Part shown: piece by piece, positions 8,923 to 52,692 of the stretch
How positions within the stretch are numbered: the first letter of the stretch is position 1
Layout: each line of letters opens with the position of its first letter
Source: a virus
Length of the DNA: 64,000 nucleotides
Strand: one strand, 5' to 3'
IMG/VR virus record: IMGVR_UViG_3300008267_000025
Location: 1-64,000 of that record
The notes under the pieces: model-generated
Seen by the model: the letters and a program-made list of their open reading frames with translations, nothing else
Told to the model about the DNA's origin: nothing
The model's database searches: none
Position numbers and translations under genes: made by a program

Positions 8923-9204
8923 ATGGAAAATACAACATATGGGGGTTGGTATATGTGTAGTGAATGTGGTCAGTATAATAGAACATCTACGGTATGTAAT
9001 CATATTAAATTAATAGATACCAATGTGAAAAACAATATAGAAGAACCTTTAAAAGAAATGTCTTTAAATGATGCGGTTGAGTATTTAAAACAAAATCCTA
9101 AAGAATCAGTTAAAATCACTTTATCAGAAGATGAACGGAATGATATAAATGATTTCTTTAAAAACTATAAGGTAAAACGTAAATACAAAAAAGACAATGA
9201 GTAA
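8923..9204 (+). CDS. hypothetical protein with N-terminal CxxC
   Basis: ORF track; CSECG. Confidence 0.65.
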   Translation: MENTTYGGWYMCSECGQYNRTSTVCNHIKLIDTNVKNNIEEPLKEMSLNDAVEYLKQNPKESVKITLSEDERNDINDFFKNYKVKRKYKKDNE

Positions 9205-9547
9205 GTTAAAACAAACAAAGATACCAGTTATTATTGACGAAGACAATTTGATAAAGATTGCCGTTGAACAAGGAGTGTTAGAAAACGAATTCAATTGGAA
9301 GTTGGTTAGAGAAAGAGATGTACTAACCAAACAATCAAAAGAAGTTATGTGGTTAGAGTGGAATGAAGATGGAAGGTTTAAAGAAAAACACGATGTACCT
9401 GGTATTGGTAGGTCATTAATCATGTCACCATTCAATGATTCATTCACTTGGCAAACAACAATTATAACAGAGATAGTTGAGGAACGTGATGGATACTTAA
9501 AGTTTAAGACAGAGAATAGTGTTTATGAATTAACTAATATAAAATAA
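9197..9547 (+). CDS. hypothetical protein
   Basis: ORF track. Confidence 0.7.
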   Translation: MSKLKQTKIPVIIDEDNLIKIAVEQGVLENEFNWKLVRERDVLTKQSKEVMWLEWNEDGRFKEKHDVPGIGRSLIMSPFNDSFTWQTTIITEIVEERDGYLKFKTENSVYELTNIK

Positions 9548-9548
9548 T

Positions 9549-9899
9549 ATGACAGGAACATTACATAAAACAGAAAAAGGTTGGGTTGTAAGATATTGGG
9601 ATAGAGACCCTCACTATAATGGTCCTATTGGTACTTTCAGACAAATTATATTTGAAGTTGAAGTATCTAAAATTAGTTTAACCAATTCCGATTTATCAAC
9701 CTATTGGGTCGATGGTAGAGAAGTTTCATTTGTAATAAACCCTTTAATACCTGTTGATGGTGGTGAAGAAGTTCTTATTATTCCTGATGAAGAAACTTGG
9801 GACGATATATTCAAAAATATATGTGACCAAGATTTGGTAACACTTTATGATGTTTGGGAATGGTTAAAACAAAATTATGAAACACCTAAACGAAAATAG
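9549..9899 (+). CDS. hypothetical protein, MTGTLHKTE family
   Basis: N-terminus shared with 10225. Confidence 0.7.
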   Translation: MTGTLHKTEKGWVVRYWDRDPHYNGPIGTFRQIIFEVEVSKISLTNSDLSTYWVDGREVSFVINPLIPVDGGEEVLIIPDEETWDDIFKNICDQDLVTLYDVWEWLKQNYETPKRK

Positions 9900-9902
9900 A
9901 TT

Positions 9903-10067
9903 ATGAATCAATTAAACGATAGATTTGAACGTCACGGATATTGGGAACATCTTTGGTTTAATAATGGTTTACTTTGTAAAGGAAACTATTTCAACGGTCA
10001 AGAAATTGGATATTGGGAATGGTATTGGATGAATGGTAATTTAACTGATAAAGCGTTTTACTTATGA
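9903..10067 (+). CDS. MORN2/YwqK-like mini-protein (54 aa)
   Basis: MNQLND..RHGYWE...GYWEWY...KAFYL; read by hand. Confidence 0.8.
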   Translation: MNQLNDRFERHGYWEHLWFNNGLLCKGNYFNGQEIGYWEWYWMNGNLTDKAFYL

Positions 10068-10228
10068 ATGAATATAATGATAAAGGTGAGAGACATGGAA
10101 TTTGGATGAAATATTATTATGATAATAAGTTGTGTTATAGAAGTAATTACATTAATGGTGACCCAATTGGTTATTGGGATTTCTATAATTCAAATAATGA
10201 CTTAATTTATAAAAAATTTTACTTATGA
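10064..10228 (+). CDS. MORN2/YwqK-like mini-protein (54 aa)
   Basis: MNEYNDKGERHG...KKFYL; ATGA overlap. Confidence 0.8.
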   Translation: MNEYNDKGERHGIWMKYYYDNKLCYRSNYINGDPIGYWDFYNSNNDLIYKKFYL

Positions 10229-10518
10229 CAGGAACATTACATAAAACAGAAGATGGTTGGGTTGTTAAACACGATGGAAAAACAACACCAATAGAACCAA
10301 ATCAAAACTGGTGGTTAGGAGAACAATCAGGTAAACAAGGATTTTATAAAGATGGTGATGAAGTAGACTTTGAAATAATTCCTTATATACCAAAAGACTT
10401 AGAACCTACTCGTGGAGAGACAGTATCTTTCGAAGCGGTTAAATACGCTAGAATATCATTAAGTGAAGATTTAACGATATGGGATGTTACATTATTGGAT
10501 GGGTTAGATAATTTGTAA
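10225..10518 (+). CDS. hypothetical protein, MTGTLHKTE family
   Basis: N-terminus shared with 9549. Confidence 0.7.
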   Translation: MTGTLHKTEDGWVVKHDGKTTPIEPNQNWWLGEQSGKQGFYKDGDEVDFEIIPYIPKDLEPTRGETVSFEAVKYARISLSEDLTIWDVTLLDGLDNL

Positions 10519-10600
10519 TATAAAAATGGGTAGGATTTTTCTTTTAAAATTTTCAACCGAAATGTTGATTATAATGATGAATGGAACACTTACACATAAC

Positions 10601-10884
10601 GTTTGGGTATAAATGAAGTACCGATTTTGAAACACAAATGTTAAATTTAAAGATAAAAGATAATATGAAAAACAAAACTAAATTACAAGTACGAACTAGG
10701 TATTTCATTTATACCTTGTTATGTGTAGTTTTCTGGTCATTATACATCAGTGGATTATATATAATGTGGTCAGATAATGAAATGGGATTGTTTATGAACT
10801 ATATATTCACATCATTTGGATTGGTAGGTATGTTGTGGTTCAATATGATATTTCACGAAAAGTTCATTGAAAATTACACATAAC
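10601..10884. mobile_element. attC-like gene cassette (284 bp)
   Basis: bounded by direct repeat TTACACATAAC (10590-10600, 10874-10884); imperfect inverted repeat 10591-10622/10699-10727; absent from homologous site at 4941-5068. Confidence 0.65.
10665..10883 (+). CDS. small two-TM membrane protein in cassette
   Basis: hydrophobic segments; stop TAA lies inside ACATAAC. Confidence 0.65.
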   Translation: MKNKTKLQVRTRYFIYTLLCVVFWSLYISGLYIMWSDNEMGLFMNYIFTSFGLVGMLWFNMIFHEKFIENYT

Positions 10885-11010
10885 TATTATATATAAGCAA
10901 GTATAGTCTAACCTATTTAAAATCAACACTTTAAATCAAAAAATTATAAAGATTCATATACAAAAACTTAATTTGTTTATTTAAAAAATTATTCATACAT
11001 TTACATTATT

Positions 11011-11397
11011 ATGACAATAGAATTAGACTATAATTACCCAAATGAGTTACATGATGAAGATGGTTATCCAACTCAAGAAGCGTTAGACTACATTAAAAAT
11101 TGGTCTATTGATTCTAACAATGGAGAGGTAAAAATGGGTAAGCATTTTGGAAAAGCTAACTATAATGAACTGATTGATTACATTAAATCAATTTGGACAT
11201 ACAAAGATGCGATTGAATATGAAAATGGTCTATTAGAAATTCATACCTATGGTTGGTCAGGAAATGAAGATATAATCCATGAGTTGAAAAATACGGATAT
11301 GTGGGATTTAAAATTCAGATGTCGACAAACTGGTGGACATTTCTATTTCAAAGTAACTGATGAATCTGAAATGGATTGGTTTGTAACTAAAGAGTAA
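11011..11397 (+). CDS. hypothetical phage protein
   Basis: ORF track; TYGWSGNE motif. Confidence 0.75.
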   Translation: MTIELDYNYPNELHDEDGYPTQEALDYIKNWSIDSNNGEVKMGKHFGKANYNELIDYIKSIWTYKDAIEYENGLLEIHTYGWSGNEDIIHELKNTDMWDLKFRCRQTGGHFYFKVTDESEMDWFVTKE

Positions 11398-11453
11398 AAT
11401 TAGGCTCCCATAATTATTAAACGTATATTTACTTAAATTTAAAATTAAAAGTT

Positions 11454-11909
11454 ATGAATAAAGAATTTTGCACATGCAAACAATCATTAGCTCTTAAAGA
11501 TTTAGGATTTGATGAACCTTGTTTTAGTTATTATGTTGATTGTGAACTTAGAGGTGTTAATTTAGGTATGGAAGAATTAGGCGGTGTTAAACCATACTAT
11601 GAGAGATTTGGGTACCACACAATTAATAACCACCATATTGATAATAAAAATAAAATTATTACATCAGCACCACTCAAACAACAAGCATTTAGATGGTTTA
11701 GAGAAAAACACAATTTATGTGGTGAAATTTATACTGTGAATATGGGTGCAATTGATTATACATTTCAAATAAGAGACCTATATAGTGAAGATGTAAAACA
11801 TGATAATTTTGAAGCATATACAGGTGGATATATTGGAACATTCTCAACCTATGAAGAAGCAGAGGATGCTTGTTTAGATAAATTAATAGAAATAGTTAAA
11901 ACAAAATAA
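11454..11909 (+). CDS. hypothetical phage protein
   Basis: ALKDLGFDEPC...QAFRWFREKH...TYEEAE. Confidence 0.75.
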   Translation: MNKEFCTCKQSLALKDLGFDEPCFSYYVDCELRGVNLGMEELGGVKPYYERFGYHTINNHHIDNKNKIITSAPLKQQAFRWFREKHNLCGEIYTVNMGAIDYTFQIRDLYSEDVKHDNFEAYTGGYIGTFSTYEEAEDACLDKLIEIVKTK

Positions 11910-11993
11910 ATATGGGAAGTGATTTTACCACATTAACCGAATCAGAAATGATGGATTTATTATTAAGTATTAACACATTATAAATAAATTAAT

Positions 11994-12455
11994 ATGAAAG
12001 CACAAGAATTAAAAATAGGTAATTTAATATACAAAAAAATACACAAAAAAGATACCCCATTAGAAGTTGTAGAAGTATTATCTATTGATGGTTCTTTTGA
12101 TGTATTAGATGTTAAAAACATTGGTGGTTATATTACAGAACAATGTCCTTTAAAAGATTTTGAACCAATTCCACTAACAGAAGAATGGTTATTAAAGTTT
12201 GGTTTCAAAGTAAAGGATAGGAAATCTAACCTTGACACTGATATATTTTATATACCTACGTTTGAAATAGATTATTGTTTGTTTTATGCTGATTTTAGAC
12301 TTGATTATGGATTGTATGTTGAATATACAGATAGTCCATTTCCTGAAGACGATGAAAAATTATATCCAATTACTTTTGGGATTAAATATGTTCATCAACT
12401 ACAAAATTTATTATATAGCTTAACAGGAGAAGAATTAACTATTAAACAAGATTAA
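11994..12455 (+). CDS. hypothetical phage protein
   Basis: PIPLTEEWLLKFGF...VHQLQNL..LTGEEL. Confidence 0.75.
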   Translation: MKAQELKIGNLIYKKIHKKDTPLEVVEVLSIDGSFDVLDVKNIGGYITEQCPLKDFEPIPLTEEWLLKFGFKVKDRKSNLDTDIFYIPTFEIDYCLFYADFRLDYGLYVEYTDSPFPEDDEKLYPITFGIKYVHQLQNLLYSLTGEELTIKQD

Positions 12456-12456
12456 T

Positions 12457-12837
12457 ATGATGACAAAAGAAGAAATGGATAACTACCTAATCAGTATTGG
12501 TGGTTTAACAAATGGATTTTTTCCGGATAGAGAACCAATCACCGACTCATATTACTTTGAGGTGGACAAAGGTTGGTACCAATTAATCAAAGATTTAATT
12601 GACGACCTTATTAAGTTAGGTTGGGATAAAGAGATATGTCAAGTGAAAGAAAAGTTTGGTGGATTAAGATTCTATATTAATGGTGGTACAACTGAAATAT
12701 TCAATAGAATATCTGAGGCGGAAGAATTAAGTATTAAAACTTGTGAAGTAACTGGTAATCCAGGTGAATTAAGAGCCGATATTGGATGGTATAGAACACT
12801 ATCTGATGAAGTTTATAATGAATTTAAAAATCGTTAA
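12457..12837 (+). CDS. hypothetical phage protein
   Basis: QVKEKFGGLRFY...TCEVTG. Confidence 0.75.
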   Translation: MMTKEEMDNYLISIGGLTNGFFPDREPITDSYYFEVDKGWYQLIKDLIDDLIKLGWDKEICQVKEKFGGLRFYINGGTTEIFNRISEAEELSIKTCEVTGNPGELRADIGWYRTLSDEVYNEFKNR

Positions 12838-12840
12838 ATA

Positions 12841-12894
12841 AACCCTGATTATATCAGGGTTTTTTGTTTATATAAAATATAATGATTATATTTG
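12841..12894 (+). promoter_or_regulatory. terminator AACCCTGA/TCAGGGTT fused to host-type promoter
   Basis: hairpin plus T run; TTTG 12863-12866 and TATATTTG 12887-12894; similar modules at 19636 and 22066. Confidence 0.7.
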
Positions 12895-12898
12895 TGAT

Positions 12899-13135
12899 AT
12901 GAATCAACATAATGATAAAGGTCAGAAACATGGCTATTGGGAAAGATATTATCTTGATAGTAAAGTAAAAAGTAAAGGCAATTATATCAACGGTAAAAGA
13001 GATGGTCTTTGGTTATGGTATACTAATGGCGGTAATCTATGGTATAAAGGAAATTATATTAATGGTGAAAGAGATGGTTATTGGGAATGGTTCAATACCA
13101 ATGATAGTTTAATTGAAAAAGAATTTGTCTTATGA
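12899..13135 (+). CDS. MORN2/YwqK-like mini-protein
   Basis: HGYWE/KGNYING repeats. Confidence 0.85.
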   Translation: MNQHNDKGQKHGYWERYYLDSKVKSKGNYINGKRDGLWLWYTNGGNLWYKGNYINGERDGYWEWFNTNDSLIEKEFVL

Positions 13136-13440
13136 ATGAATATAATGATAAATCATTACGTCATGGATATTGGGAAGTTTACACTTCTAATGGTAATCTA
13201 TGGTATACAGGGAATTATATTAATGGTGAGTATTTTGGGTATTGGGAATGGTATTACTTTAATAGTAATCTAAGGTATAAAGGGACTTTCAATAATGGTA
13301 AACAAAATGGTTATTGGAAACAATATCATTCTAATGGTAATCTATGGTATAAAGGTGATTATGTTAATGGTGAACGAGTTGGTTGTTGGGATTGGTATAA
13401 TAAAAATGGCGATTTAGTTATTAAAGAATTTGTCTTATGA
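13132..13440 (+). CDS. MORN2/YwqK-like mini-protein (longest, 102 aa)
   Basis: four repeat units. Confidence 0.85.
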   Translation: MNEYNDKSLRHGYWEVYTSNGNLWYTGNYINGEYFGYWEWYYFNSNLRYKGTFNNGKQNGYWKQYHSNGNLWYKGDYVNGERVGCWDWYNKNGDLVIKEFVL

Positions 13441-13601
13441 ATAAATTAAATGATAAAGGTGAACTCCACGGTTATTGGGAAGATTATTACTATGGTGGTA
13501 ATATATGGTATAAAGGATATTATAATAATGGTGAACCTGATGGTTATTGGGAGTGGTATGGCCCTAATGATAATATAATTGAAAAACAATTTTTTCTATA
13601 A
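13437..13601 (+). CDS. MORN2/YwqK-like mini-protein (54 aa)
   Basis: MNKLNDKGELHGYWE...KQFFL; read by hand. Confidence 0.8.
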   Translation: MNKLNDKGELHGYWEDYYYGGNIWYKGYYNNGEPDGYWEWYGPNDNIIEKQFFL

Positions 13602-13663
13602 AAATAAATTTGGAAATATAAAATAAAACACATACATTTGTAAAACAATTAATAATAAAAAAT

Positions 13664-14416
13664 ATGAAACCAGAAATCAAAATTATCTATAACAAAAACG
13701 GTGTAAATTTAACTTTAAACTTAGGTACTAAAACATTCTTAACTGATGTTTCAAATACCGATGTGGTTAGATATTTGAAAGGTATTTTCACAAACAAGTC
13801 AAGATTCAAATCAAGATTTACCGATGACTTTAAAAGAGCATTCACCGAGACAAATGACCAAGATTTCGAATGTTCTGAATTATTAAATGAGTTGTTATCA
13901 ACTTACGATACTGTAGAACCATATACTTACTCTGAAGCATTCAGATTAGAAAACAGAGAGTTCCAAGCCATGGTGTTTGGAAGTATAAACATCACTGATA
14001 TGATTACTGAATTAGGTCATACTCGTATTAAAGTGGATGGTATTCAAGTTAAGCATAAAAAGTATAAATCAAACGGTGACTTTGAAGGGTTTGTTGAATA
14101 TGACAATATCTATGAAACTCACGAAGTGTCAGGTAAAAAAATTGGTTTAGAAGAAAATCTATACGCTGTTAAATGTTGGTGTACTTCAACTAATAAGGAG
14201 CATTGGTTGTGGATTGAAGAACAATACAAAGACAATCCATTAGAAGCTGTGGCATCCACATTCAGATTACATGAGAATGTTATTCCACATATCAAAGAAA
14301 TCAAACGTCAAGGTGATATCTTACTTTTAGAAATGAATGAAGATGTCAAACCAGAAGGTAATGTAGTACCACTCACGGCAGCCCAGTACTTTGGTTTATT
14401 GACCGCACAATCTTAA
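13664..14416 (+). CDS. hypothetical protein
   Basis: 250-aa ORF; C-terminal CWCTSTNKEHWLW...RQGD. Confidence 0.8.
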   Translation: MKPEIKIIYNKNGVNLTLNLGTKTFLTDVSNTDVVRYLKGIFTNKSRFKSRFTDDFKRAFTETNDQDFECSELLNELLSTYDTVEPYTYSEAFRLENREFQAMVFGSINITDMITELGHTRIKVDGIQVKHKKYKSNGDFEGFVEYDNIYETHEVSGKKIGLEENLYAVKCWCTSTNKEHWLWIEEQYKDNPLEAVASTFRLHENVIPHIKEIKRQGDILLLEMNEDVKPEGNVVPLTAAQYFGLLTAQS

Positions 14417-14470
14417 TTTAGAACCCCTTTAATTAGGGGTTTTTCTTTTTAACTTTTAAATATCAGTAAT

Positions 14471-14707
14471 GTGAATGAAAATAATGATAAAAGTGAATCT
14501 CATGGATATTGGGAAGTTTACCATAATAACGGCAATCTATCTCATAAAGTAAATTATATTAATGGTAAAAAAGATGGTTATTGGAAAAGTTATTGGTTAA
14601 ATGGTAATTTGAATTATAAAGGTGAATATATTAATGGTCAAAATAGGGGCTATTGGGAATGGTATTGGGTTGATGGTAAATTAGAAGAAAAACAATTTTA
14701 CTTATGA
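14471..14707 (+). CDS. MORN2/YwqK-like mini-protein
   Basis: repeat motif; GTG start. Confidence 0.8.
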   Translation: MNENNDKSESHGYWEVYHNNGNLSHKVNYINGKKDGYWKSYWLNGNLNYKGEYINGQNRGYWEWYWVDGKLEEKQFYL

Positions 14708-14946
14708 ATCAAAGAAATGATAAAGGAGAACGTATTGGTTATTGGGAAGACTATTGGTCTAATGGTAATCTAGATTTTAAAGGGAATTACACTCTAAATG
14801 GTAAAAAAGATGGTTACTGGGAAAGTTGTTATGTGAACGGTAATTTATATAGTAGAGGGAATTATATTAATGATGAAAGAGATGGTCTTTGGGAATGGGG
14901 TGATTTTAATGATAATGAAATAATAACTAAAGCGTTTTACTTATGA
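14704..14946 (+). CDS. MORN2/YwqK-like mini-protein
   Basis: repeat motif; ATGA overlap. Confidence 0.85.
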   Translation: MNQRNDKGERIGYWEDYWSNGNLDFKGNYTLNGKKDGYWESCYVNGNLYSRGNYINDERDGLWEWGDFNDNEIITKAFYL

Positions 14947-15179
14947 ATCAACATAATGATAAAGGTCAGAAACATGGCTATTGGGAAAGATATTATCTTG
15001 ATAGTAAAGTAAAAAGTAAAGGCAATTATATCAATGGTAAAAGTGATGGTCTTTGGGTGTATTATTATAATAACGGTAATTTAGGTTATAAAGGAAGTTA
15101 TGTTAATGGTGAAAGATATGGTTACTGGGAGTGGTGTAAGTTTGATGGTGGATTATATCAAAAAGAATTTGTCTTATGA
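14943..15179 (+). CDS. MORN2/YwqK-like mini-protein
   Basis: first 33 aa identical to 12899. Confidence 0.85.
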   Translation: MNQHNDKGQKHGYWERYYLDSKVKSKGNYINGKSDGLWVYYYNNGNLGYKGSYVNGERYGYWEWCKFDGGLYQKEFVL

Positions 15180-15421
15180 ATAAAAGAATCAATAAAGGAG
15201 AAAAACATGGATATTGGGAAAGATATTATCCTAATGGTAATTTAAACTTTAAAGGTTATTTCAATAATGGTAAAACTCATGGTCTTTGGGAAAGTTATTA
15301 TCAAAATGGTGATTTAATGTATAAAGGTAGTTATATTAATGATGAACGTATTGGATTATGGGAGTGGTATCCATTAATTCATAATGAATATAATCGAATA
15401 GAAAAAGAATTTTACTTATGA
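15176..15421 (+). CDS. MORN2/YwqK-like mini-protein
   Basis: repeat motif. Confidence 0.85.
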   Translation: MNKRINKGEKHGYWERYYPNGNLNFKGYFNNGKTHGLWESYYQNGDLMYKGSYINDERIGLWEWYPLIHNEYNRIEKEFYL

Positions 15422-15582
15422 ATCAACATAACGATAAAGGTCAGAAACACGGTTACTGGGAACATTATTATTTTGAAGAGGTTATATGGTATAGGGTTAA
15501 TTATGACAATGGTAATATGGTTGGTTGCTGTGAACTTTTTAATAGTTTTGGTGAATTAACAGCTAAAGCATTTTTCTTATGA
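15418..15582 (+). CDS. MORN2/YwqK-like mini-protein (54 aa)
   Basis: MNQHNDKGQKHGYWE...KAFFL; read by hand. Confidence 0.8.
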   Translation: MNQHNDKGQKHGYWEHYYFEEVIWYRVNYDNGNMVGCCELFNSFGELTAKAFFL

Positions 15583-15749
15583 ATGAATATAATGATAAAC
15601 ATGAACCCCATGGTTATTGGGAAATATACTGGGGTGATAGTAACGAACATTTAATGTTTAAAGGAATTTTTATTAACGGAATTGAAAGTGGGTATTGGGA
15701 ATGGAATTCAATTGATAGTAAATTAAAACATAAAGCATTTTACTTATGA
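15579..15749 (+). CDS. MORN2/YwqK-like mini-protein (56 aa)
   Basis: MNEYNDKHEPHGYWE...KAFYL; read by hand. Confidence 0.8.
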   Translation: MNEYNDKHEPHGYWEIYWGDSNEHLMFKGIFINGIESGYWEWNSIDSKLKHKAFYL

Positions 15750-15991
15750 ATGGATATAACAGTAAAGGACAAAGACAGGGTTATTGGGAAAAGCGGTATC
15801 CTAATGGTAATTTAGACTATAAAGGTTATTACATTAACGGCAAGCGTCAAGGTGTTTGGGAAAGTTATTATCAAAATGGAAAGTTGTCTTGGAAAGGTAA
15901 TTTTAATGATGATTTGTATACAGGATATTTCGAATGGCATCCAATCATTATAAATGAACACAATCAAATAGAAAAAGAATTTTACTTATGA
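15746..15991 (+). CDS. MORN2/YwqK-like mini-protein
   Basis: close paralogue of 15176. Confidence 0.85.
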   Translation: MNGYNSKGQRQGYWEKRYPNGNLDYKGYYINGKRQGVWESYYQNGKLSWKGNFNDDLYTGYFEWHPIIINEHNQIEKEFYL

Positions 15992-16224
15992 ATCAATTAA
16001 ATAGTAAAGAATACTTATACGGATATCCTGATGAAAATATCTTTAGCACGGAATGGTTTAAAGGGTATTACCTTAATGGTGAATATTATGGGTATTGGGA
16101 GTGGTATTCAACTAACGGTAATGTATGGCTGAAAGGTCATTACCTTAATAATAAAGAAAATGGATATTGGGAACATTATATTTATAATGAAGATAAATTA
16201 AATCAAAAACTATTTTACTTATAA
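15988..16224 (+). CDS. MORN2/YwqK-like mini-protein
   Basis: repeat motif, divergent first unit. Confidence 0.8.
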   Translation: MNQLNSKEYLYGYPDENIFSTEWFKGYYLNGEYYGYWEWYSTNGNVWLKGHYLNNKENGYWEHYIYNEDKLNQKLFYL

Positions 16225-16260
16225 TATTTAATGTTATATTAACTATTTATTAAATAAAAA

Positions 16261-16746
16261 ATGAGTAACATACGTGATATAATCAAAAAAGTTTTGAATG
16301 AGAATCATCAAGAAAAAATTAATGCTATTTTAGATAAAATCAATTTAGTTGGATTTGAGAATTTATCTGACTATGAGAAATCATTATTGGGTAAATTATC
16401 TAAAGATGAATATAAATACAATTCAATTGACGAAGAAGTTATTGATTGGTTAGATAAACGTTATGGTAAATTTATAGTGGATGAATTTACTGAAAAAAGT
16501 TTTGGTAGATTTACTAATAAAGGATTTAATTTTTTAAATGATGACCTTGATTTAATGATGAAACTCGTGGTTCATGTTGATGATAGAAGAGATAATATTC
16601 TATATGTACATTACAGTATTTTTAGTGAATTAAAAAAAGAATTTAATTTGGATGATGACCAAGAAGAACAAATTTTAAAGATGTGGTTAAATAAAACTTA
16701 CCCAAATTTCAATTTTAATCACGTTAAAATTAGTCAACTATTTTAA
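16261..16746 (+). CDS. leader-bearing hypothetical protein
   Basis: MSNIRDIIKKVLNE; TATTTAT upstream. Confidence 0.75.
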   Translation: MSNIRDIIKKVLNENHQEKINAILDKINLVGFENLSDYEKSLLGKLSKDEYKYNSIDEEVIDWLDKRYGKFIVDEFTEKSFGRFTNKGFNFLNDDLDLMMKLVVHVDDRRDNILYVHYSIFSELKKEFNLDDDQEEQILKMWLNKTYPNFNFNHVKISQLF

Positions 16747-17298
16747 ATACTTGTGTAATTTCCATCTATCAACATCCGATATTTCTTTTTTAAGTTCTTC
16801 GTAATTAACATTTAATTGGTTTGTTAAATCAGGTGAACCGTCATGATTCATCGTATAAAATAGGTTATTGTTTTTATCGTAAACCATGTTAACTGATTCT
16901 AATGTAATGTAAGAAATATAATCCATAGTGTTTATAAAACATACTTTAATACTTGTACCAAAACATTTGTTAACCCCAATATGATTCAATAAACTAACAA
17001 ACTCATTAGAGATTACACCCAAATATATTGAACAACCTTCAGGTAATCCATTTGTTATTCTACATTTTTCAGTTATTGGTAAAAATTGAGGTATTCTCTT
17101 ATCAGTATTAACCTCAATAATAAAATTATATATTTCAAAATATGGGTTATCTGTTTTAATAATATCGGTATTAACGATTACGTTAGCTTCAAATTTATAA
17201 TCGAACTTAAAACCTGTCAATTCTTCAATAATCTTATTACCCATTGCATTATATAACGTGGTAATTATTTTATTGATATTTTTACTTAACATTATCAT
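16738..17298 (-). CDS. hypothetical protein
   Basis: ORF track; TATATTTG plus 4 nt before ATG on minus strand. Confidence 0.7.
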   Translation of the reverse strand: MIMLSKNINKIITTLYNAMGNKIIEELTGFKFDYKFEANVIVNTDIIKTDNPYFEIYNFIIEVNTDKRIPQFLPITEKCRITNGLPEGCSIYLGVISNEFVSLLNHIGVNKCFGTSIKVCFINTMDYISYITLESVNMVYDKNNNLFYTMNHDGSPDLTNQLNVNYEELKKEISDVDRWKLHKYLK

Positions 17299-17368
17299 GT
17301 AACAAATATATAAATAATTTTTAAAATATTATATTTGTTATATCACAATAAAAATAATATATTTGTTT

Positions 17369-17608
17369 ATGAATAATATTGAAGAATATTACCCTGATGA
17401 AATAATATTAAAAGCAGATGGGTTCGATGATGCTATAATAGGTATTGATGATATCTCAATGAGATTAATTTATTCCGTATCTAAATGTCTTGAAATCTTA
17501 AAAAAAGATATGGATGAAGAAGAAGCTATAGAATATTTTGATTTTAATGTGAAATATGCTTATGTTGGTGATAAAACACCTATTTGGTGTGTTGATAATT
17601 TAATATAA
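17369..17608 (+). CDS. hypothetical phage protein
   Basis: ADGFDDAIIG...EAIEYFDFNV..AYVG.KTP. Confidence 0.75.
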   Translation: MNNIEEYYPDEIILKADGFDDAIIGIDDISMRLIYSVSKCLEILKKDMDEEEAIEYFDFNVKYAYVGDKTPIWCVDNLI

Positions 17609-17626
17609 TAATGTATTTATCATATT

Positions 17627-18130
17627 ATGAAAGAAAAACATATCAATGGCTTAGTAAAAATGATTAATTTGTATGGTCTTGTTAAGACATCAGAAATGAC
17701 AGGATTATCAATTTATGAATTAGCAATTAAAACTAATTTTAAATTAGATTTAGATACATACCAAATTATTTTAAAATCTTTATCTAAAAACAAACTTATC
17801 CCATCTACATACAAAGATTTTGAGATTTATATAGATAATTTTAGTGGTATTTATAATTGGGGTGGTCCTATATATGATGGAAATGGTGAAAAATATTATA
17901 TAGAAGCAATGGCAACACCATTTTGGGATGATTATGGAATACCTGTTGAGATTATTAGTATAGATTCATCAGAGATTGATGATGATAATTTTTCATACAT
18001 TAAAGTCGATGATAAGATTGAAACTGTTGATGAATTAATACGGTGGTATAATGAGTTTTATTTACCAAAAACTTATGAAAAGATAGTTACATTGTTTTCA
18101 GATTTATTAGAAACAGGTTATTATAATTAA
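17627..18130 (+). CDS. hypothetical protein
   Basis: ORF track; TATTTAT upstream. Confidence 0.7.
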   Translation: MKEKHINGLVKMINLYGLVKTSEMTGLSIYELAIKTNFKLDLDTYQIILKSLSKNKLIPSTYKDFEIYIDNFSGIYNWGGPIYDGNGEKYYIEAMATPFWDDYGIPVEIISIDSSEIDDDNFSYIKVDDKIETVDELIRWYNEFYLPKTYEKIVTLFSDLLETGYYN

Positions 18131-18131
18131 T

Positions 18132-18476
18132 ATGTGTAAAATAATAATTGCTGGTAGTAGGACATTTAATGATTATAACTTATTGATAAAAACACTTAAA
18201 GAATTAAATTTAAATATTACAGAAATTGTTAGTGGAACGGCAAAAGGTGCTGATTCATTGGGTGAAAAATTCGCCACCGAAAATAATATACCAATTAAAA
18301 AATTCCCCCCAAATTGGTCTAAATATCATAAATCCGCAGGTGTTATCAGAAACCAAGAAATGATTGATTATGGGGATGTTTTAATAGCGTTTTGGGATAG
18401 AAATAGTAAAGGTACTCAGGATTCTATTAATAAAGCTCAAAAATCAGGTAAAAAAGTGTTCGTAATTGAATTTTAA
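18132..18476 (+). CDS. SLOG-family protein (YspA/DUF2493-like)
   Basis: IIAGSR, VSGTAKGADSLG, AGVIRN, AFWD..SKGT. Confidence 0.8.
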   Translation: MCKIIIAGSRTFNDYNLLIKTLKELNLNITEIVSGTAKGADSLGEKFATENNIPIKKFPPNWSKYHKSAGVIRNQEMIDYGDVLIAFWDRNSKGTQDSINKAQKSGKKVFVIEF

Positions 18477-18530
18477 TTTTTTTAATCTCAATTTAATTAC
18501 TTATCTTTGTTAATACTAAAACATAGTATT

Positions 18531-18848
18531 ATGGCAAAAAAAATAACCCAAACTTCACCTGTTAAAGTATTACATGAAACTCAATTAATTAATCGTGATT
18601 CGGCAAGAGTCTGTAAAATAGTTGAATTTAATGGTAAAAAATTCAAAATAATTTACGATTTAAGAAATGGTATTAGTGACCTTTCTTGTTACGTTATGGA
18701 TAATTATGGTGCGTTTCAATTCGCCTTAAACAAATACGATATAGGTCATAATTTTACGTGTTCTTATGTTAATAATGAAGAAACTAAAAAATCAGATATT
18801 AAAGTAGCTTTAGACTTATGTGAAAAAGTAATTATTAAAATATATTAA
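18531..18848 (+). CDS. hypothetical protein
   Basis: track ORF 18507; start MAKK. Confidence 0.65.
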   Translation: MAKKITQTSPVKVLHETQLINRDSARVCKIVEFNGKKFKIIYDLRNGISDLSCYVMDNYGAFQFALNKYDIGHNFTCSYVNNEETKKSDIKVALDLCEKVIIKIY

Positions 18849-18859
18849 TAATTTTACTT

Positions 18860-19024
18860 ATGAATAAATTTAATGATAAAGGTAAAAAGCATGGATATTG
18901 GGAAGGATATTATTCACATAGTAAGTTAATGTATAAAGGAAATTATAATAATGGAGTTCAAACAGGTTGTTGGGAATGGTATTACTTAGATGGTAATTTT
19001 TTAACAAAAGAATTTTTTTTATAA
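18860..19024 (+). CDS. MORN2/YwqK-like mini-protein (54 aa, singleton)
   Basis: MNKFNDKGKKHGYWE...KEFFL; read by hand. Confidence 0.8.
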   Translation: MNKFNDKGKKHGYWEGYYSHSKLMYKGNYNNGVQTGCWEWYYLDGNFLTKEFFL

Positions 19025-19047
19025 TATATTTATATAAAAAAGAAATT

Positions 19048-19614
19048 ATGAGTAAAGAAATGAGAGAACAAATTGATAAATTTAATAAATTACTTTTATC
19101 GGATTTTGATAAACCGACTTTAGATAGTTTATCTTCTATTTTAAATACAAATGTGAACATTATTGATTTTAATGATTTTGGTAAACTGAGTAGTAAAGAT
19201 GGTAAATTTGAACTAAACGGTGGTAAAAAACAAAAAATAAAAGATTATTATGTTGATATTCAAAATATTGATATTGTGAAAAAAAATAACAGTATTGTTG
19301 ATGTAACACTTTTAGTTATGACCATTTCAAATGAGTCAGAAACTATTGATATTGATTATGTTAAATCAACAGGTAAATTTAATGTGGTGTCTGTATCACC
19401 AGTTGATGTTGATTATAAAGATAAAGGTTTTACAAAAATATCTTTAGACAAATACACCAACGATAACAATATGGCTGGTTATACGATAAACAATAAGTTT
19501 ATTAGTGATAGAAAAGAATTGGCTAAACATTTTATAAGTATTAAGAAATTACAACCAAATGATTTCAAAAAATTAATACAACATTTAGGCGTATCTTATA
19601 AAAATTTAAAATAA
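19048..19614 (+). CDS. leader-bearing hypothetical protein
   Basis: MSKEMREQIDKFN leader similar to 4594; TATTTATA upstream. Confidence 0.7.
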   Translation: MSKEMREQIDKFNKLLLSDFDKPTLDSLSSILNTNVNIIDFNDFGKLSSKDGKFELNGGKKQKIKDYYVDIQNIDIVKKNNSIVDVTLLVMTISNESETIDIDYVKSTGKFNVVSVSPVDVDYKDKGFTKISLDKYTNDNNMAGYTINNKFISDRKELAKHFISIKKLQPNDFKKLIQHLGVSYKNLK

Positions 19615-19695
19615 TAGTAAAAAATAGTGTATATAAACCCTGACTAACCATCAGGGTTTTTTTGTTTATATCAAAATAAACAGTATATTTGTAAT

Positions 19696-19932
19696 ATGAA
19701 TCAATTAAATGATAAAGGTGAACGTCACGGGTATTGGGAAGAATACTGGTCAAATAATGTTATATCATCTAAAGGTGAATATATTAACAACAATAGGGTT
19801 GGTCTTTGGATATTGTACAGAACTGACGGCATCTTATCTTGTAAAGGAAATATACTTAATGGTGAACAAACAGGTTGTTGGGAATGGTATGATAAAAAAG
19901 GTAAATTAACACATAAAGCATTTTACTTATGA
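19696..19932 (+). CDS. MORN2/YwqK-like mini-protein
   Basis: repeat motif; first of an 11-gene chain. Confidence 0.85.
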   Translation: MNQLNDKGERHGYWEEYWSNNVISSKGEYINNNRVGLWILYRTDGILSCKGNILNGEQTGCWEWYDKKGKLTHKAFYL

Positions 19933-20093
19933 ATGAATTTAATGATAAAGGAAACGCTCATGGTTATTGGGAAACATATTGGAATAATGATAAGTCACAC
20001 TGGGAAGGTAATTTTAATAATGGTATAGAATGTGGTTATTGGACGTGGTATAAACCTGATGGTGAAATATTTCAAAAAGAATTTTACTTATGA
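19929..20093 (+). CDS. MORN2/YwqK-like mini-protein (54 aa)
   Basis: MNEFNDKGNAHGYWE; read by hand. Confidence 0.8.
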   Translation: MNEFNDKGNAHGYWETYWNNDKSHWEGNFNNGIECGYWTWYKPDGEIFQKEFYL

Positions 20094-20326
20094 ATCAATA
20101 TAATGATAAAGGACAAAGACATGGTTATTGGGAATTTTATTATCTTAATGATACTATAGCATATAAAGGAAGTTTCAATAATGGGAAAGAAGATGGGAAT
20201 TGTGAGGGTTATTATAATAATAAAAATTTACAGTTTAAAGGAAATTTCATTAATGGCGTAAAGAATGGTTATTGTGTAAGTTATAATTTAAATGGTAGTT
20301 TAAGAAATAAAGAATTTTATTTATGA
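20090..20326 (+). CDS. MORN2/YwqK-like mini-protein
   Basis: repeat motif. Confidence 0.85.
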   Translation: MNQYNDKGQRHGYWEFYYLNDTIAYKGSFNNGKEDGNCEGYYNNKNLQFKGNFINGVKNGYCVSYNLNGSLRNKEFYL

Positions 20327-20559
20327 ATCAATATAATGATAAAGGACAATTTCATGGTTATTGGGAACATCATTATTTGTGTGGTGAATTGTTAGGTAAA
20401 GGAACTTATATAAACGGTAAACGTCACGGATATTGGGAAGACTGTTATCGGAACGGAAAATTACAATGGGTTGGTAACTACAATAATGGAGAACGTATTG
20501 GTTATTGGGGTTGGTATAATAAGGATGGTAAATTAGAAGAAAAAGAATTTTACTTATGA
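20323..20559 (+). CDS. MORN2/YwqK-like mini-protein
   Basis: repeat motif. Confidence 0.85.
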   Translation: MNQYNDKGQFHGYWEHHYLCGELLGKGTYINGKRHGYWEDCYRNGKLQWVGNYNNGERIGYWGWYNKDGKLEEKEFYL

Positions 20560-20726
20560 ATAAATATAATTACAACGATAAAGGTCAGAGACACGGTTAC
20601 TGGGAATTATATTGGCTCAATGGTAATCCATGGTGTAGAGGAAGTTATATTAATAACGCTGCAACTGGTTATTGGGAATGGTATGATGATAGTGGAGAAT
20701 TTTTTGAAAAACAATTTTACTTATGA
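20556..20726 (+). CDS. MORN2/YwqK-like mini-protein (56 aa)
   Basis: MNKYNYNDKGQRHGYWE; read by hand. Confidence 0.8.
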   Translation: MNKYNYNDKGQRHGYWELYWLNGNPWCRGSYINNAATGYWEWYDDSGEFFEKQFYL

Positions 20727-20959
20727 ATCAATATAACGATAAAGGTGAACGTCATGGGTATTGGGAAGGATATCGAGGTAATGGTAATTTATGGTCTAAA
20801 GGAAACTATGTCAATGATAAACGTAACGGATGTTGGGAATTTTACTGGGGAAATGGTAAATTACAATGGAAAGGTAATTATAATAATGGTATAGAACGTG
20901 GTATTTGGGTGTGGTATGACAGTGATGGTAAATTAAAAGAGAAAGTTTTTCACTTATGA
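20723..20959 (+). CDS. MORN2/YwqK-like mini-protein
   Basis: repeat motif. Confidence 0.85.
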   Translation: MNQYNDKGERHGYWEGYRGNGNLWSKGNYVNDKRNGCWEFYWGNGKLQWKGNYNNGIERGIWVWYDSDGKLKEKVFHL

Positions 20960-21192
20960 ATAAATTAAACGATAAAGGTTATAAACATGGATATTGGGAA
21001 ATATATGACAGTTATAACAATCTCTATGCTAAAGGAGAATACATTAACGGATTTAAGAATGGTTATTGGGAGGAATATTATTCTAATGGTAACTTAGTAT
21101 GGAAAGGTTATTTTAAAGATAATAAGGATGTTGACTTTTGGCAATTCTATAGTATGTCAGGTAATTTAGCATTAAAAACTTTTAGATTATGA
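20956..21192 (+). CDS. MORN2/YwqK-like mini-protein
   Basis: repeat motif. Confidence 0.85.
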   Translation: MNKLNDKGYKHGYWEIYDSYNNLYAKGEYINGFKNGYWEEYYSNGNLVWKGYFKDNKDVDFWQFYSMSGNLALKTFRL

Positions 21193-21425
21193 ATGAAAGA
21201 GATGATAAAGGTAAACGTCACGGATATTGGGAAAATTATTTTTCTAATGGTAATATATCTTGGAAAGGTAATTTCATTAATGGTGAACCTGATGGTTATT
21301 GGGAGTACTATTATTTTAATGGTAATATATCGTATAAAGGAAATTATAATAATGGAGAAAGTAACTGTTACTGTGAATATTATAGCCCTGACGGTATAAT
21401 AAAAGAAAAAGGATTTCACTTATGA
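21189..21425 (+). CDS. MORN2/YwqK-like mini-protein
   Basis: repeat motif. Confidence 0.85.
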   Translation: MNERDDKGKRHGYWENYFSNGNISWKGNFINGEPDGYWEYYYFNGNISYKGNYNNGESNCYCEYYSPDGIIKEKGFHL

Positions 21426-21658
21426 ATCAATATAACGAAAATAGGTTAAAAGAAGGTTATTGGGAAGCTTATTATTCTAATGGTAACCTGGGGTATAAAG
21501 GGAATTATATTAATGGTAAGTCAGTTGGTTATTGGGAAGAATATTATGTTAATGGTAATTTATCTAAAAAAGGTAATTATATTAATGATGAATATATAGG
21601 TAATTGGGAATGGTATGACAGTAATGGTAATTTATACGAAAAAGAATTTTACTTATGA
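21422..21658 (+). CDS. MORN2/YwqK-like mini-protein
   Basis: close paralogue of 21816. Confidence 0.85.
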   Translation: MNQYNENRLKEGYWEAYYSNGNLGYKGNYINGKSVGYWEEYYVNGNLSKKGNYINDEYIGNWEWYDSNGNLYEKEFYL

Positions 21659-21819
21659 ATCAATTTAATGAAAGAGGTGAACACCACGGATATTGGGAAG
21701 AAACTTATTTTAACGATGTTATATGGTATAAAGGAAATTATGTCAACAATCAAATGGTTGGTCATTGGGAAGTTTTTAATGTTTTTGGTCAAATAACAGA
21801 TAAAGCGTTTTTTTTATGA
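21655..21819 (+). CDS. MORN2/YwqK-like mini-protein (54 aa)
   Basis: MNQFNERGEHHGYWE; paralogue of 15418. Confidence 0.8.
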   Translation: MNQFNERGEHHGYWEETYFNDVIWYKGNYVNNQMVGHWEVFNVFGQITDKAFFL

Positions 21820-22052
21820 ATCAATTTAATGATAAAGGGTTAAAAGAAGGTTATTGGGAAGCTTATTATTCTAATGGTAACCTGTGGTATAAAGGAAATT
21901 TCAGTAATGATAAGTCAGTTGGTTATTGTGAAGAATATTATCTGAATGGTAGTTTATATTGTAAAGGTGAGTTTAACTACGATGAATATTTAGGTTATTG
22001 GGAATGGTACTATATAGATGGTAATTTAGTTATTAAAGAATTTTACTTATGA
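21816..22052 (+). CDS. MORN2/YwqK-like mini-protein
   Basis: repeat motif; last of chain, followed by terminator at 22066. Confidence 0.85.
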   Translation: MNQFNDKGLKEGYWEAYYSNGNLWYKGNFSNDKSVGYCEEYYLNGSLYCKGEFNYDEYLGYWEWYYIDGNLVIKEFYL

Positions 22053-22128
22053 ATATAATGATAATAACCCTGAATAACATCAGGGTTTTTTATTGCCATA
22101 TAAAATTAAATTATTATATTTGTATACA

Positions 22129-22386
22129 ATGGATTATATAAACGCTTTTAAACATTTCTCAGAGAGACTAAAGGAAAGATTTAGTCAGGAGATTACATAT
22201 GAACACTATATAAATAATCTTATTAGAAAAAGAACATTAGATAAGAAATATATTGGTAAACATGTAAGATATATGGATGGGGAAAAGGTATATGTTTATC
22301 TTATATATAAGAAAGTGGAACTACCTATTACTGTATATAAATTAGATAGGATTAATAAGGGACGAGTACTTAAAACCTTATCATAA
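22129..22386 (+). CDS. hypothetical protein
   Basis: start MDYINAFKHFSERL after TATATTTG. Confidence 0.6.
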   Translation: MDYINAFKHFSERLKERFSQEITYEHYINNLIRKRTLDKKYIGKHVRYMDGEKVYVYLIYKKVELPITVYKLDRINKGRVLKTLS

Positions 22387-23313
22387 ATAAGACACCACTT
22401 TTTATAAGGATGAAATTCTAATCTAACCTAAAAATAATCTCACTTATAAGAGGCTCGGTGTTTATCCCTGTTAAGGTAGCCACACAACGACAGATGATTA
22501 AAATTATTAACTAAACAAACTCATTCATACATCCCCCACCCTAACGGTGGGTCGTTACGTTACACTTCGTTCCACTCCACTAATGTACTCATTCTTTTGT
22601 TTACTTAATAATTTTCCCCCAATGTAATATTATTAGATTATAATAACCCCCCTTTCTAAAGACATACAAATAATAAATTTTAAATGGTATAATACGTCTT
22701 TATATATAATCTATGGTAATATCATCACTATACGAAAATCGTATAATATAAGGGATATTATATGGTATTATACAAGTAACGTATATAGTAATCTATTATG
22801 ACAAAGTTATTAATTATATCCCATTGTCAGGTTTCACCTGAAATATTATATATCCCAAACTAACTTTCTTTAGTAGATTTATCATAATTTGTTATGGTAT
22901 GTCTATTTAATAGGGACTTTGAATGTCCTCATTGAAGATATATTCATAACTATTCTAACACACTACGTGTTTCCCCCGATACTATACCATTATTATATAC
23001 TATTTGCTGGGTTTTACCACTATCAAAAAAAATACCCCTCACACTATCAAGAACAACACTTTTTTACGTTCCTGATATCCACATCACCATTATCGGTGGT
23101 AAATAGTGTAACTTCGTGGTAAACAGTAGTGGTAAATAGTGGGGAAAGAGATTATCCCCATCATCAATCAAACATGACATTCTGACAAAAACAAGTTTTT
23201 TAACATATTTATTTATCAACAATTCCCCCTAATTATATCAACAACCCAATTTTGTAATAAACAAAAACCCCGTTCATAACTTTATTTTATTGTACCAATT
23301 ATTATATTATATT

Positions 23314-49380: not shown

Positions 49381-52692
<3,312 letters not shown>

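Follow-up and report, generated by a model that had tools for sequence, protein, structure and literature searches.

A strain-variable multigene family of MORN_2 mini-proteins, possibly binders, in a large phage that probably infects Bacteroidota

Exactly 25 intact genes for MORN_2 mini-proteins, all on the + strand, lie in five clusters that begin at positions 9903 (2 genes), 12899 (3), 14471 (8), 18860 (1) and 19696 (11) of a phage fragment, IMG/VR virus record IMGVR_UViG_3300008267_000025, whose 77,673 bases are estimated by CheckV to represent ~26%, or about a quarter, of the genome; the window analysed here is the first 64,000 bases of that record. The record also contains genes for an endolysin, tRNAs, DnaK and ClpB, and its source is probably a very large uncultured phage whose host is a member of the Bacteroidota. 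Because the mini-genes change rapidly, exchange sequence among themselves and vary from strain to strain, they can be read as a panel of small protein binders, and we see about an even chance that they form a family of small cytoplasmic binders, inherited and subject to recombination, that pair one-to-one with variable proteins, comparable to polyimmunity loci. A narrower and more doubtful proposal is that large Bacteroidota phages carry tens of mini MORN binders as a heritable, recombining, polyimmunity-like repertoire in which every member neutralises a different host defence effector or interbacterial toxin.

The gene count and the cluster positions given in a preliminary description of this DNA were reproduced by ORF calls and a family HMM; the HMM ties together 25/25 genes at E values of 1e-18 to 1e-50 and, searched against six-frame ORFs of the whole record, found no 26th copy. 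That description had reported nine genes as missed by its ORF track, which fits the nine genes shorter than 60 aa, and had noted quantised lengths, which were recovered as classes of 54-56 aa (nine genes: seven of 54 aa and two of 56), 78-81 aa (15 genes: twelve of 78, one of 80 and two of 81) and 102 aa (one gene). The step between classes is one 24-residue unit, and a G-Y-W anchor is spaced at exactly 24 residues, falling on residues 12, 36, 60 and 84. All 25 frames are intact, as had been claimed, and the copies share 35-78% amino acid identity (median 52%) with no near-identical recent duplicates among them.

Adjacent genes are joined by the TTATGA overlap first reported (a Leu codon and a TGA stop with an overlapping ATG), which was found at 20/20 MORN-to-MORN junctions. 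The first cluster comprises two 54-aa genes, m01 (9903..10067; 2 anchors) and m02 (10064..10228), and the m02 stop overlaps, again through TTATGA, the start of the gene at 10225, which is not a MORN gene. Cluster 2 comprises m03 (12899..13135, 78 aa), m04 (13132..13440, 102 aa, 4 anchors) and m05 (13437..13601, 54 aa), which closes it with a TAA stop. Cluster 3 runs through m06 (14471..14707, 78 aa), m07 (14704..14946, 80 aa), m08 (14943..15179, 78 aa), m09 (15176..15421, 81 aa), m10 (15418..15582, 54 aa), m11 (15579..15749, 56 aa) and m12 (15746..15991, 81 aa) to the most divergent copy, m13 (15988..16224, 78 aa), and also ends in a TAA stop. The first of these genes, m06, begins with GTG and not with ATG as initially described; strain variant L004 has ATG there. 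Upstream of the lone gene of cluster 4, m14 (18860..19024, 54 aa), lies a relic of a ...FYL-stop/ATG junction. Cluster 5 contains m15 (19696..19932, 78 aa), m16 (19929..20093, 54 aa), m17 (20090..20326, 78 aa), m18 (20323..20559, 78 aa), m19 (20556..20726, 56 aa), m20 (20723..20959, 78 aa), m21 (20956..21192, 78 aa), m22 (21189..21425, 78 aa), m23 (21422..21658, 78 aa), m24 (21655..21819, 54 aa) and m25 (21816..22052, 78 aa), the last of which keeps a relic, TTATGAAT, at its 3' end and is followed by an intrinsic terminator (22066..22087).

Clusters 2 and 5 are each preceded by an intrinsic terminator (12840..12862 and 19635..19659, respectively) and then by a Bacteroidota-type promoter placed 4 nt before the first ATG, TTG-N20-TATATTTG at 12864..12894 for m03 and TTG-N19-TATATTTG at 19662..19691 for m15, and these modules predict that the two clusters are separate transcription units. 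On the + strand, TTG-N18-21-TAnnTTTG was observed 19 times where 6.3 ± 2.8 occurrences were expected. Host-type promoters are usual for early phage genes and not for a late context; those of clusters 2 and 5 (14 genes) would start transcription at or beside the first ATG, and the two clusters are probably early, judging from promoter type. The earlier suggestion that the repertoire is mostly early-expressed is consistent with these two clusters; the eight genes of cluster 3, the first of them with its GTG start, follow an intrinsic terminator (14420..14443) and lack a recognisable promoter, which weighs against it. An SD-like motif was found at none of 73 ORFs examined, and 66% of them have an A at -3. 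Since no Shine-Dalgarno sequence is present, ribosomes would be expected to move between genes of these polycistronic messages via the ATGA stop/start overlaps, with clusters 2 and 5 transcribed from the host-type promoters at or near their first ATG.

The mini-genes belong to the Pfam MORN_2 (PF07661) repeat family. When 10 of the 25 genes were scored as whole proteins against its gathering cut-off of 29.6 bits, five passed (31.2-45.7 bits, the highest score being that of m04) and a sixth reached 29.5, while 54-aa genes gave 23.4 bits or no match and two divergent 78-aa genes gave 14-15 bits. The constant scaffold and variable intervening residues of the preliminary description reappear in the per-position entropy of the repeat, in which G1, W3, E4, Y6, K15, G16, Y18 and N20 are near-constant (0-1 bit), positions 5, 8, 13, 23 and 24 are variable (3.2-3.9 bits), and both groups hold a fixed register across repeats. 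The beta-hairpin fold proposed earlier was likewise recovered by structure prediction of monomers: AlphaFold (AF2) models of m18 (pLDDT 94.6) and m14 (pLDDT 92.3) are flat sheets of six and four strands, so a MORN fold, with a hairpin per 23-24 residues in a single antiparallel sheet, is confidently predicted. The best PDB matches are the MORN sheets of SET7/9, RSPH1 and MORN1; phage and giant-virus MORN proteins also match the fold, the top one being an 84-aa uncultured phage protein (TM 0.97), and each of the nearest ESM Atlas clusters (83, 113 and 54 aa) that has a known taxon is viral.

Metagenome variants of this phage have flanks of 88-96% nucleotide identity, yet their array content and copy number differ, which is the comparison among strains that had been called for. 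In L002, L004, L005, L006 and L007, flanks or individual genes are 88-96% identical at the nucleotide level and the gene sets differ, whereas orthologues that are present in other strains are stable at 82-91% amino acid identity (m01 and L007_37, 83%; m02 and L007_287, 91%; m21 and L002_2253, 82%). At an equal dS of 0.27-0.28, dN/dS is 0.49 for MORN orthologues versus 0.06 for flanking genes (Fisher p = 9e-14), so the proteins evolve at ~8x the rate of their neighbours at matched synonymous divergence. Split by site class, the ratio is 0.99 (~1.0) where the repeat varies and falls to 0.33 in the scaffold (p = 0.009), an estimate in which the classes were chosen from paralogue variability and which is confounded because recombination between copies renders some 'orthologous' segments non-orthologous. 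A ratio near 1 at variable sites is explained equally well by relaxed constraint and by positive selection. Recombination between copies is shown by exact mosaic tracts of 92 nt (the initial 92 nt of m03, shared with m08) and 144 nt (m20 and its orthologue L002_2020, which are 46-79% identical beyond it), compared with a median longest match of 13 nt.

The per-site analysis thus supports constraint on the scaffold and stops short of demonstrating positive selection. The neutral evolution with frequent pseudogenes in relatives that had been named as an argument against a library is matched in part by a few broken copies (a frameshift in L004_108, missing N-termini in L006_2884 and L003_1738, and three broken G001 loci), and is opposed by the scaffold constraint. 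Given these broken copies, the family undergoes birth and death, and as a library it is imperfectly maintained. The 'diversified binder library' first proposed retains its intact, fast-evolving, strain-variable and recombining genes, and is qualified by the variable-site ratio and the broken copies. A related 115.7-kb phage contig has at least 50 such genes with a cap type of its own, and the arrays account for 7% of the DNA sequenced from one phage lineage and ~13% of that from a second, diverged lineage.

Together, these features can be accommodated if the 25 genes constitute a multigene family that is inherited within one lineage of very large phages. Each protein consists of an 11-residue N-cap, one to three full 24-residue MORN_2 beta-hairpin units and a 19-residue closing unit, and would reside in the cytoplasm as one flat antiparallel sheet with 4, 6 or 8 strands. 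Conserved mid-strand residues would hold the fold, leaving the strand ends and the long turn free to vary. Point changes, the gain or loss of 24-residue units or entire genes, and segment exchange among the copies may all generate variants. By analogy with known systems we infer that binding is the most likely job of these proteins: in the course of infection each would bind a single variable protein of the host or of a competitor, such as a defence effector or toxin, and the arrays would act as a phage-borne counterpart of bacterial polyimmunity loci.

One such system is YwqK of Bacillus subtilis, the immunity protein to the LXG toxin YwqJ (COG2849, 'YwqK family antitoxin'), which belongs to the same Pfam repeat family and binds and neutralises the YwqJ deaminase toxin one-to-one (PMC13648612). 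The likeness is one of family and of name, as databases call close homologues 'antitoxin component YwqK', and one-to-one binding of a toxin domain is the kind of action that may apply to the mini-proteins. In contrast to this bacterial toxin operon, the phage arrays have no adjacent toxin gene, and their proteins are 54-102 aa long with their own N- and C-caps and 25 copies. No toxin, known defence or anti-defence gene was found near the arrays, where neighbours are MORN genes or hypothetical proteins without PHROGs, NCBIfam or PADLOC matches or a Pfam toxin match. A YwqK-type toxin-immunity pair identified by adjacency was therefore rejected, as no toxin gene lies beside any array.

A second likeness is to homogeneous polyimmunity loci (Zhang et al., 2012, PMC3482391): like the phage arrays, these are tandem paralogues of one binder family that share an orientation, have minimal spacing, are presumably polycistronic and without interspersed toxins, and vary in content from strain to strain. 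The 8-gene and 11-gene runs of the phage, whose members overlap by 4 nt, fit the pattern of at least four tandem, co-oriented, close paralogues with no toxin between them, and content differs between close strains. However, polyimmunity loci are bacterial, so the arrays, which lie on an IMG/VR virus contig, do not qualify by location, and the loci are mostly of SUKH, Imm11, Imm33 and similar families, with no mention of MORN in the text consulted (PMC3482391). The phage arrays also differ in occupying five sites, in being coupled strictly by ATGA and in having lengths that grow one repeat unit at a time.

Other relatives share the repeat and differ in gene architecture. Multigene families of the same repeat type are known from giant viruses (Orpheovirus, Pithovirus, Hyperionvirus and Marseilleviridae) and, as MORN2 expansions, from Fusobacterium (PMC4222103); repeat-protein gene expansion with genome size has been described (PMC5753266), and Foldseek gives TM values of 0.8-0.93 to many members of these families. 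Most of those proteins, however, have lengths of 120-450 aa or more, and they are encoded by scattered or loosely clustered genes of eukaryotic viruses or cellular genomes, not by chains of capped 54-102 aa genes with stop/start overlaps. Eukaryotic MORN domains (the SET7/9 N-domain, MORN1, MORN4 and RSPH1) have the same fold, a hairpin per repeat in a single elongated sheet, but are 17-30% identical and occur as domains of larger proteins or in dimerising proteins of 6-15 repeats, none being a stand-alone protein of 2-4 repeats. Phage-borne MORN_2 repeats also occur in cultured phages, namely Vibrio phage 2.275.O (NVP2275O_371) and a Helicobacter equorum prophage (BK070118), although as single genes of ~370-400 aa with 29-40% identity. 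No mini-gene array was found in 50,697 GenBank phage records, and a literature search found no paper describing such arrays in phages.

Eukaryotic MORN proteins have structural roles in MORN1 rings and radial-spoke heads, so the mini-proteins could instead pack together by their edges or faces, giving homo- or hetero-oligomeric sheets that build or organise a structure in the infected cell or virion. This proposal, which we consider unlikely, draws on the fold match to MORN1 and RSPH1, on a composition that is 23% aromatic with exposed sheet edges, and on the DnaK and ClpB chaperones encoded in the same record. Structural parts are normally conserved and single-copy, however, whereas these proteins outpace the flanks in sequence change, vary in content and number between near-identical strains and range in pI from 4.3 to 9.0, and the promoters of clusters 2 and 5 are of the early-gene kind. 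That same variability, together with the variable-site ratio, the broken or truncated copies in relatives and the junction relics at array edges, would be produced by a near-neutral accordion: a repeat gene prone to recombination would expand and degenerate within a dispensable part of a huge genome, and its individual copies would have no specific function. We regard this as quite improbable, since all 25 genes are intact despite their divergence and show no recent duplication, scaffold sites are constrained, caps, unit length and ATGA coupling are retained in every copy, and the trait persists in two diverged lineages.

Ligand binding has been suggested for the MORN repeats of endolysins and junctophilins, and the Asn/Gly-rich as well as aromatic composition might allow flat Tyr/Trp/Asn-rich sheets to bind cell-wall glycans, capsule or membrane lipids, with a role in lysis or in blocking adsorption to debris. 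Phage endolysins with MORN repeats are mentioned in a study of a marine virome (PMC9238414), and similarity to the LIC20035 adhesin family was seen below threshold; but none of the 25 mini-proteins has a signal peptide, lipobox or fused catalytic domain, the endolysin gene (39082-40125) is separate and distant from the arrays, and so many diverged copies are hard to reconcile with a conserved glycan or lipid, making this reading very unlikely. Variable residues at fixed positions in a constant frame also recall targeted hypermutation by a diversity-generating retroelement or similar programmed mechanism, to which we assign almost no probability. No reverse transcriptase (RVT_1) match was found in the record, although control genomes responded, and no near-identical repeat pair besides the m03/m08 tract; a template/variable pair is absent because the copies are only 35-78% identical, and a retroelement target was thus rejected within this incomplete genome. 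Orthologues are stable across strains, and ordinary substitution and recombination account for the variation.

If the mini-proteins serve as binders during infection, 7-13% of the sequenced DNA in a clade of very large phages is devoted to a diversified set of minimal one-sheet proteins of 54-102 aa. Phages would then possess a previously undescribed kind of counter-measure, or a tool for host takeover, derived from a repeat family whose sole tested bacterial member in the literature consulted is a toxin-immunity protein. Such binders would also offer a natural, evolvable mini-scaffold for binder engineering, and on the narrower proposal above the arrays would be to phages what orphan-immunity arrays are to bacteria, as well as a naturally occurring collection of minimal beta-sheet binders. 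They are nearly invisible to routine annotation and may be widely under-counted in viromes, because nine genes are shorter than 60 aa, PHROG matches are lacking and assemblies break on repeats. In a long-read marine virome, MORN repeats were reported to be 37 times more frequent than in assemblies (PMC9238414).

The best-supported interpretation of the analysis is that the MORN_2 mini-genes would constitute a family of small putative binders, cytoplasmic and made early in infection, that is under selection and recombines. Listing of the open reading frames of at least 40 aa between positions 9000 and 23000 placed these genes in five clusters, with two genes from 9903, three from 12899, eight from 14471, one at 18860 and 11 from 19696. 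When a family HMM built from the 25 mini-proteins was run on six-frame ORFs of the entire 77,673-base record, it matched exactly 25 genes, all on the + strand, and no further copies. This layout agrees with the preliminary description, which had also reported that nine of the genes were absent from the ORF track, that lengths were quantised and that neighbours were joined by stop/start overlaps. Nine mini-genes encode fewer than 60 aa, so the ORF track would miss them; the full set of lengths is 54 aa (seven genes), 56 (two), 78 (12), 80 (one), 81 (two) and 102 (one). Since G-Y-W anchors occupy residues 12, 36, 60 and 84 in nearly all mini-genes, the size classes (54-56, 78-81 and 102 aa) differ by whole 24-residue units. 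TTATGA is present at all 20 MORN-to-MORN junctions, the second gene (m02) is joined by a TTATGA-type overlap to an unrelated gene at 10225, and the 3' end of the last gene (m25) carries a relic, TTATGAAT, followed by a terminator. The gene at 14471 (m06) starts with GTG; its counterpart in strain variant L004 starts with ATG, and the region upstream is otherwise conserved. A AATAATTT(T)ACTTATG sequence precedes single MORN genes at window 18846-18862 and L004 95-110; it looks like what is left of a ...FYL-stop/ATG junction whose upstream gene was lost, and these single genes may be all that remains of longer arrays.

Assignment of the mini-proteins to Pfam MORN_2 (PF07661) was obtained for five of 10 tested genes, with a sixth within 0.1 bit of the cut-off and the two-unit genes falling below it because they are too short, and the family profile matches the MORN repeats of SET7/9, MORN1, RSPH1 and MORN4, for which structures are solved. 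AlphaFold2 models were confident for both proteins modelled: the 78-aa m18 folds into a sheet of six strands (pLDDT 94.6) and the 54-aa m14 into one of four (pLDDT 92.3). The best solved-structure matches found by Foldseek were SET7/9, RSPH1 and MORN1, and the best predicted viral structure was an 84-aa uncultured-phage protein labelled 'MORN variant' (TM 0.97 at 57% identity), which ranked above many giant-virus MORN proteins. No signal peptide was found in the mini-proteins, which are rich in Asn (13.6%), Tyr (13.0%), Gly (12.1%) and Trp (6.1%) and span a pI range of 4.3-9.0. The proposed constant scaffold with variable intervening residues is evident in the 24-residue register, where G1, W3, E4, Y6, K15, G16, Y18 and N20 are near-fixed and positions 5, 8, 13, 23 and 24 have entropies of 3.2-3.9 bits. 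By DSSP secondary structure of the model, the fixed residues would run as a belt along the middle of the sheet, with the variable ones at the two ends of the strands and within the long turn.

No close relative was found in 50,697 GenBank phage records by megablast of 9000-23000 or tblastn of m18, and a longer relative from L001 used as query retrieved only single long MORN proteins from these phages, encoded by a jumbo phage of Vibrio and a prophage of Helicobacter. A search of GTDB species representatives with m20 gave no confirmed relative, which is weak evidence given a scan limited to exact 8-residue words. A protein collection contained 668 homologues of similar length, many of which share the caps and sizes (55, 78-82, 102 aa) and the named ones of which are called 'antitoxin component YwqK'. 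At E <= 0.001 the whole MORN_2 superfamily amounts to 54,054 cluster representatives. Among the nearest ESM Atlas clusters (83, 113 and 54 aa), every one with a recorded taxon is viral. The closest functional model for the mini-proteins is YwqK, a protein that neutralises the YwqJ deaminase toxin by binding it (PMC13648612), and the closest organisational model for the arrays is the homogeneous polyimmunity locus, in which genes are tandem, co-oriented, tightly spaced, strain-variable and free of toxin genes (PMC3482391). The arrays lie on a phage replicon, have no adjacent toxin gene and encode proteins that are putative binders; membership in either system is not established. Rival explanations would give the mini-proteins a scaffold role, or have them bind glycans or lipids. 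Neither MORN repeats nor the concept of binder or immunity genes in tandem arrays is new; what is new is that they occur on a phage, as capped mini-proteins of 2-4 units whose genes are strictly chained stop to start and number from 25 to more than 50. No papers on phage arrays of MORN mini-genes were found, and a marine virome study in which long reads contained MORN repeats 37 times more often than assemblies did (PMC9238414) fits such arrays breaking assemblies.

Two further rivals are a near-neutral accordion of repeat genes and programmed hypermutation; the latter is opposed by the lack of a reverse transcriptase in the (partial, 26%) record. Pairwise Nei-Gojobori counts pooled over seven orthologue pairs gave a dN/dS of 0.49 for the MORN genes (dN 0.133, dS 0.272) versus 0.06 for three flanking non-MORN genes on the same contigs (dN 0.017, dS 0.280; Fisher p = 9e-14). 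With site classes picked from paralogue variability, dN/dS was 0.99 at variable register sites (dN 0.245, dS 0.246) and 0.33 at scaffold sites (dN 0.094, dS 0.283; p = 0.009), and m02 differs from its orthologue in the related contig L007 by five residue changes and no synonymous change. These values show that the fold is strongly constrained and that its rims change freely or by favoured change, which falls short of proof of positive selection. They are to be read with the caveat that the mini-genes are mosaics: m03 and m08 have an exact 92-nt 5' tract in common, m20 is identical to L002_2020 over 144 nt and then only 46-79% so, and the median longest exact match among paralogues is 13 nt.

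Comparison with six metagenome contigs and one IMG/VR contig revealed that array content differs among strains. L002 (3 kb) consists of 14 consecutive mini-genes. Its orthologues of m20 (85% aa) and m21 (82% aa) keep the order of the window; the genes around them are different, and L002 contains a duplicated three-gene block. L007 matches cluster 1 at 88-94% nt and has an extra 30-aa one-unit gene between the m01 and m02 counterparts. L004 matches window 13602-14587 at 90%; in that contig a single frameshifted copy and an inserted gene for a signal-peptide protein stand in for cluster 2, and the first cluster-3 gene has two units versus three in the window. At L004 203-757 this 390-nt signal-peptide gene sits between two copies of a promoter block that is single in the window (13600-13663), an arrangement that looks like a cassette insertion with promoter duplication. 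L005 and L006 retain flanks or m02 at 95-97%, yet carry other MORN genes. In the related 115.7-kb phage contig G001, the final 40 kb hold at least 50 MORN genes; most are ATGA-coupled, with sizes of 59, 83, 107, 131, 155 and 202 aa and caps that differ from those of the window (N-terminus like MNSKDITP.NEKGE, C-terminus KIYYI), and three loci in G001 are broken. Median identity within the window record and G001 is 51% and 65%, versus 46% between them, which points to lineage-specific amplification or homogenisation. A MORN subfamily absent from the window begins differently (N-terminus ..EIRKENLINLYNEKG..) and ends in a conserved tail of 30 residues (..ELTLSDIANKLGIDVDKLRIKE), perhaps a small module that is helical or binds DNA (L001 2701-4105; G001 113916-115522; proteins P0008, P0017, P0031 and P0037).

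Terminator-like hairpins lie directly 5' of clusters 2, 3 and 5 and directly 3' of cluster 5 (11 observed in this stretch vs 3.2 expected). At clusters 2 and 5 the terminator is followed by TTG-N19/20-TATATTTG, which recurs after cluster 5, with 4-6 nt to the ATG. The general form TTG-N18-21-TAnnTTTG is the known form of Bacteroidota promoters (Bacteroides, Flavobacterium). The + strand of the record has 19 occurrences, compared with 6.3 +/- 2.8 in Markov-1 simulations, and the minus strand has six. Nine promoters of the form TTG-N19/20-TA(T/A)(A/T)TTTG (window 5091, 6381, 12887, 19684, 29746, 37146, 52750 and 54674; record 69442) have an ATG exactly 4 nt downstream, a spacing that implies leaderless or near-leaderless mRNAs. 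Among 73 ORFs of at least 100 aa, none has an SD-like 4-mer upstream (background 5%) and 66% have A at -3. Together, these signals suggest a Bacteroidota host and transcription of 14 of the 25 mini-genes by the host polymerase, probably at an early stage and with near-leaderless starts. Inside the arrays, start codons have C or T at -3 and lack an SD, so translation of downstream genes probably relies on termination-reinitiation at ATGA. The host-type promoters of the 14 genes in clusters 2 and 5 fit the earlier view that the family is mostly early-expressed. No promoter was recognisable for cluster 3; cluster 1 and m14 lie within longer operons. E. coli-type sigma-70 promoters were not enriched (111 observed vs 113 expected). 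Similar TATCTTTG promoters lie upstream of tRNA-like genes at 1623, 23750 and 24025. A second motif, TATTTAT, at window 16244, 17614 and 19027, lies 10-20 nt upstream of the start codons of non-MORN genes between arrays (16261, 17627 and 19048) and may mark another temporal promoter class.

The IMG/VR contig is 26% complete (CheckV), so the genome is probably ~300 kb; a T4 gp23 search gave no match in the record or in the control genomes, which makes its negative result uninformative. Genes on the record include four for tRNAs and one each for an endolysin, an Hsp70 and a ClpB-like ATPase. The C-terminal part of Hsp70 (window 51535-52692) and the double-AAA ClpB-like ATPase (minus strand, record 73959-75965, corresponding to 9959-11965 of L010, a further stretch of the same record) are a phage-encoded chaperone pair. 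PHROGs gave no families for the mini-genes or their neighbours, PADLOC gave no matches for genes around the arrays, and NCBIfam gave only a far sub-threshold similarity to the LIC20035 adhesin. Cluster 1 is flanked by paralogous genes at 9549-9899 and 10225-10518, the latter ATGA-coupled to m02; both begin MTGTLHKTE.GWVV, and neither had a family-library match. A 250-aa protein encoded between clusters 2 and 3 (window 13664-14416) is 96% identical in L004, and two of its paralogues adjoin MORN genes in G001 (L001 4190-4960 and 6676-7371), which suggests a conserved MORN neighbourhood.
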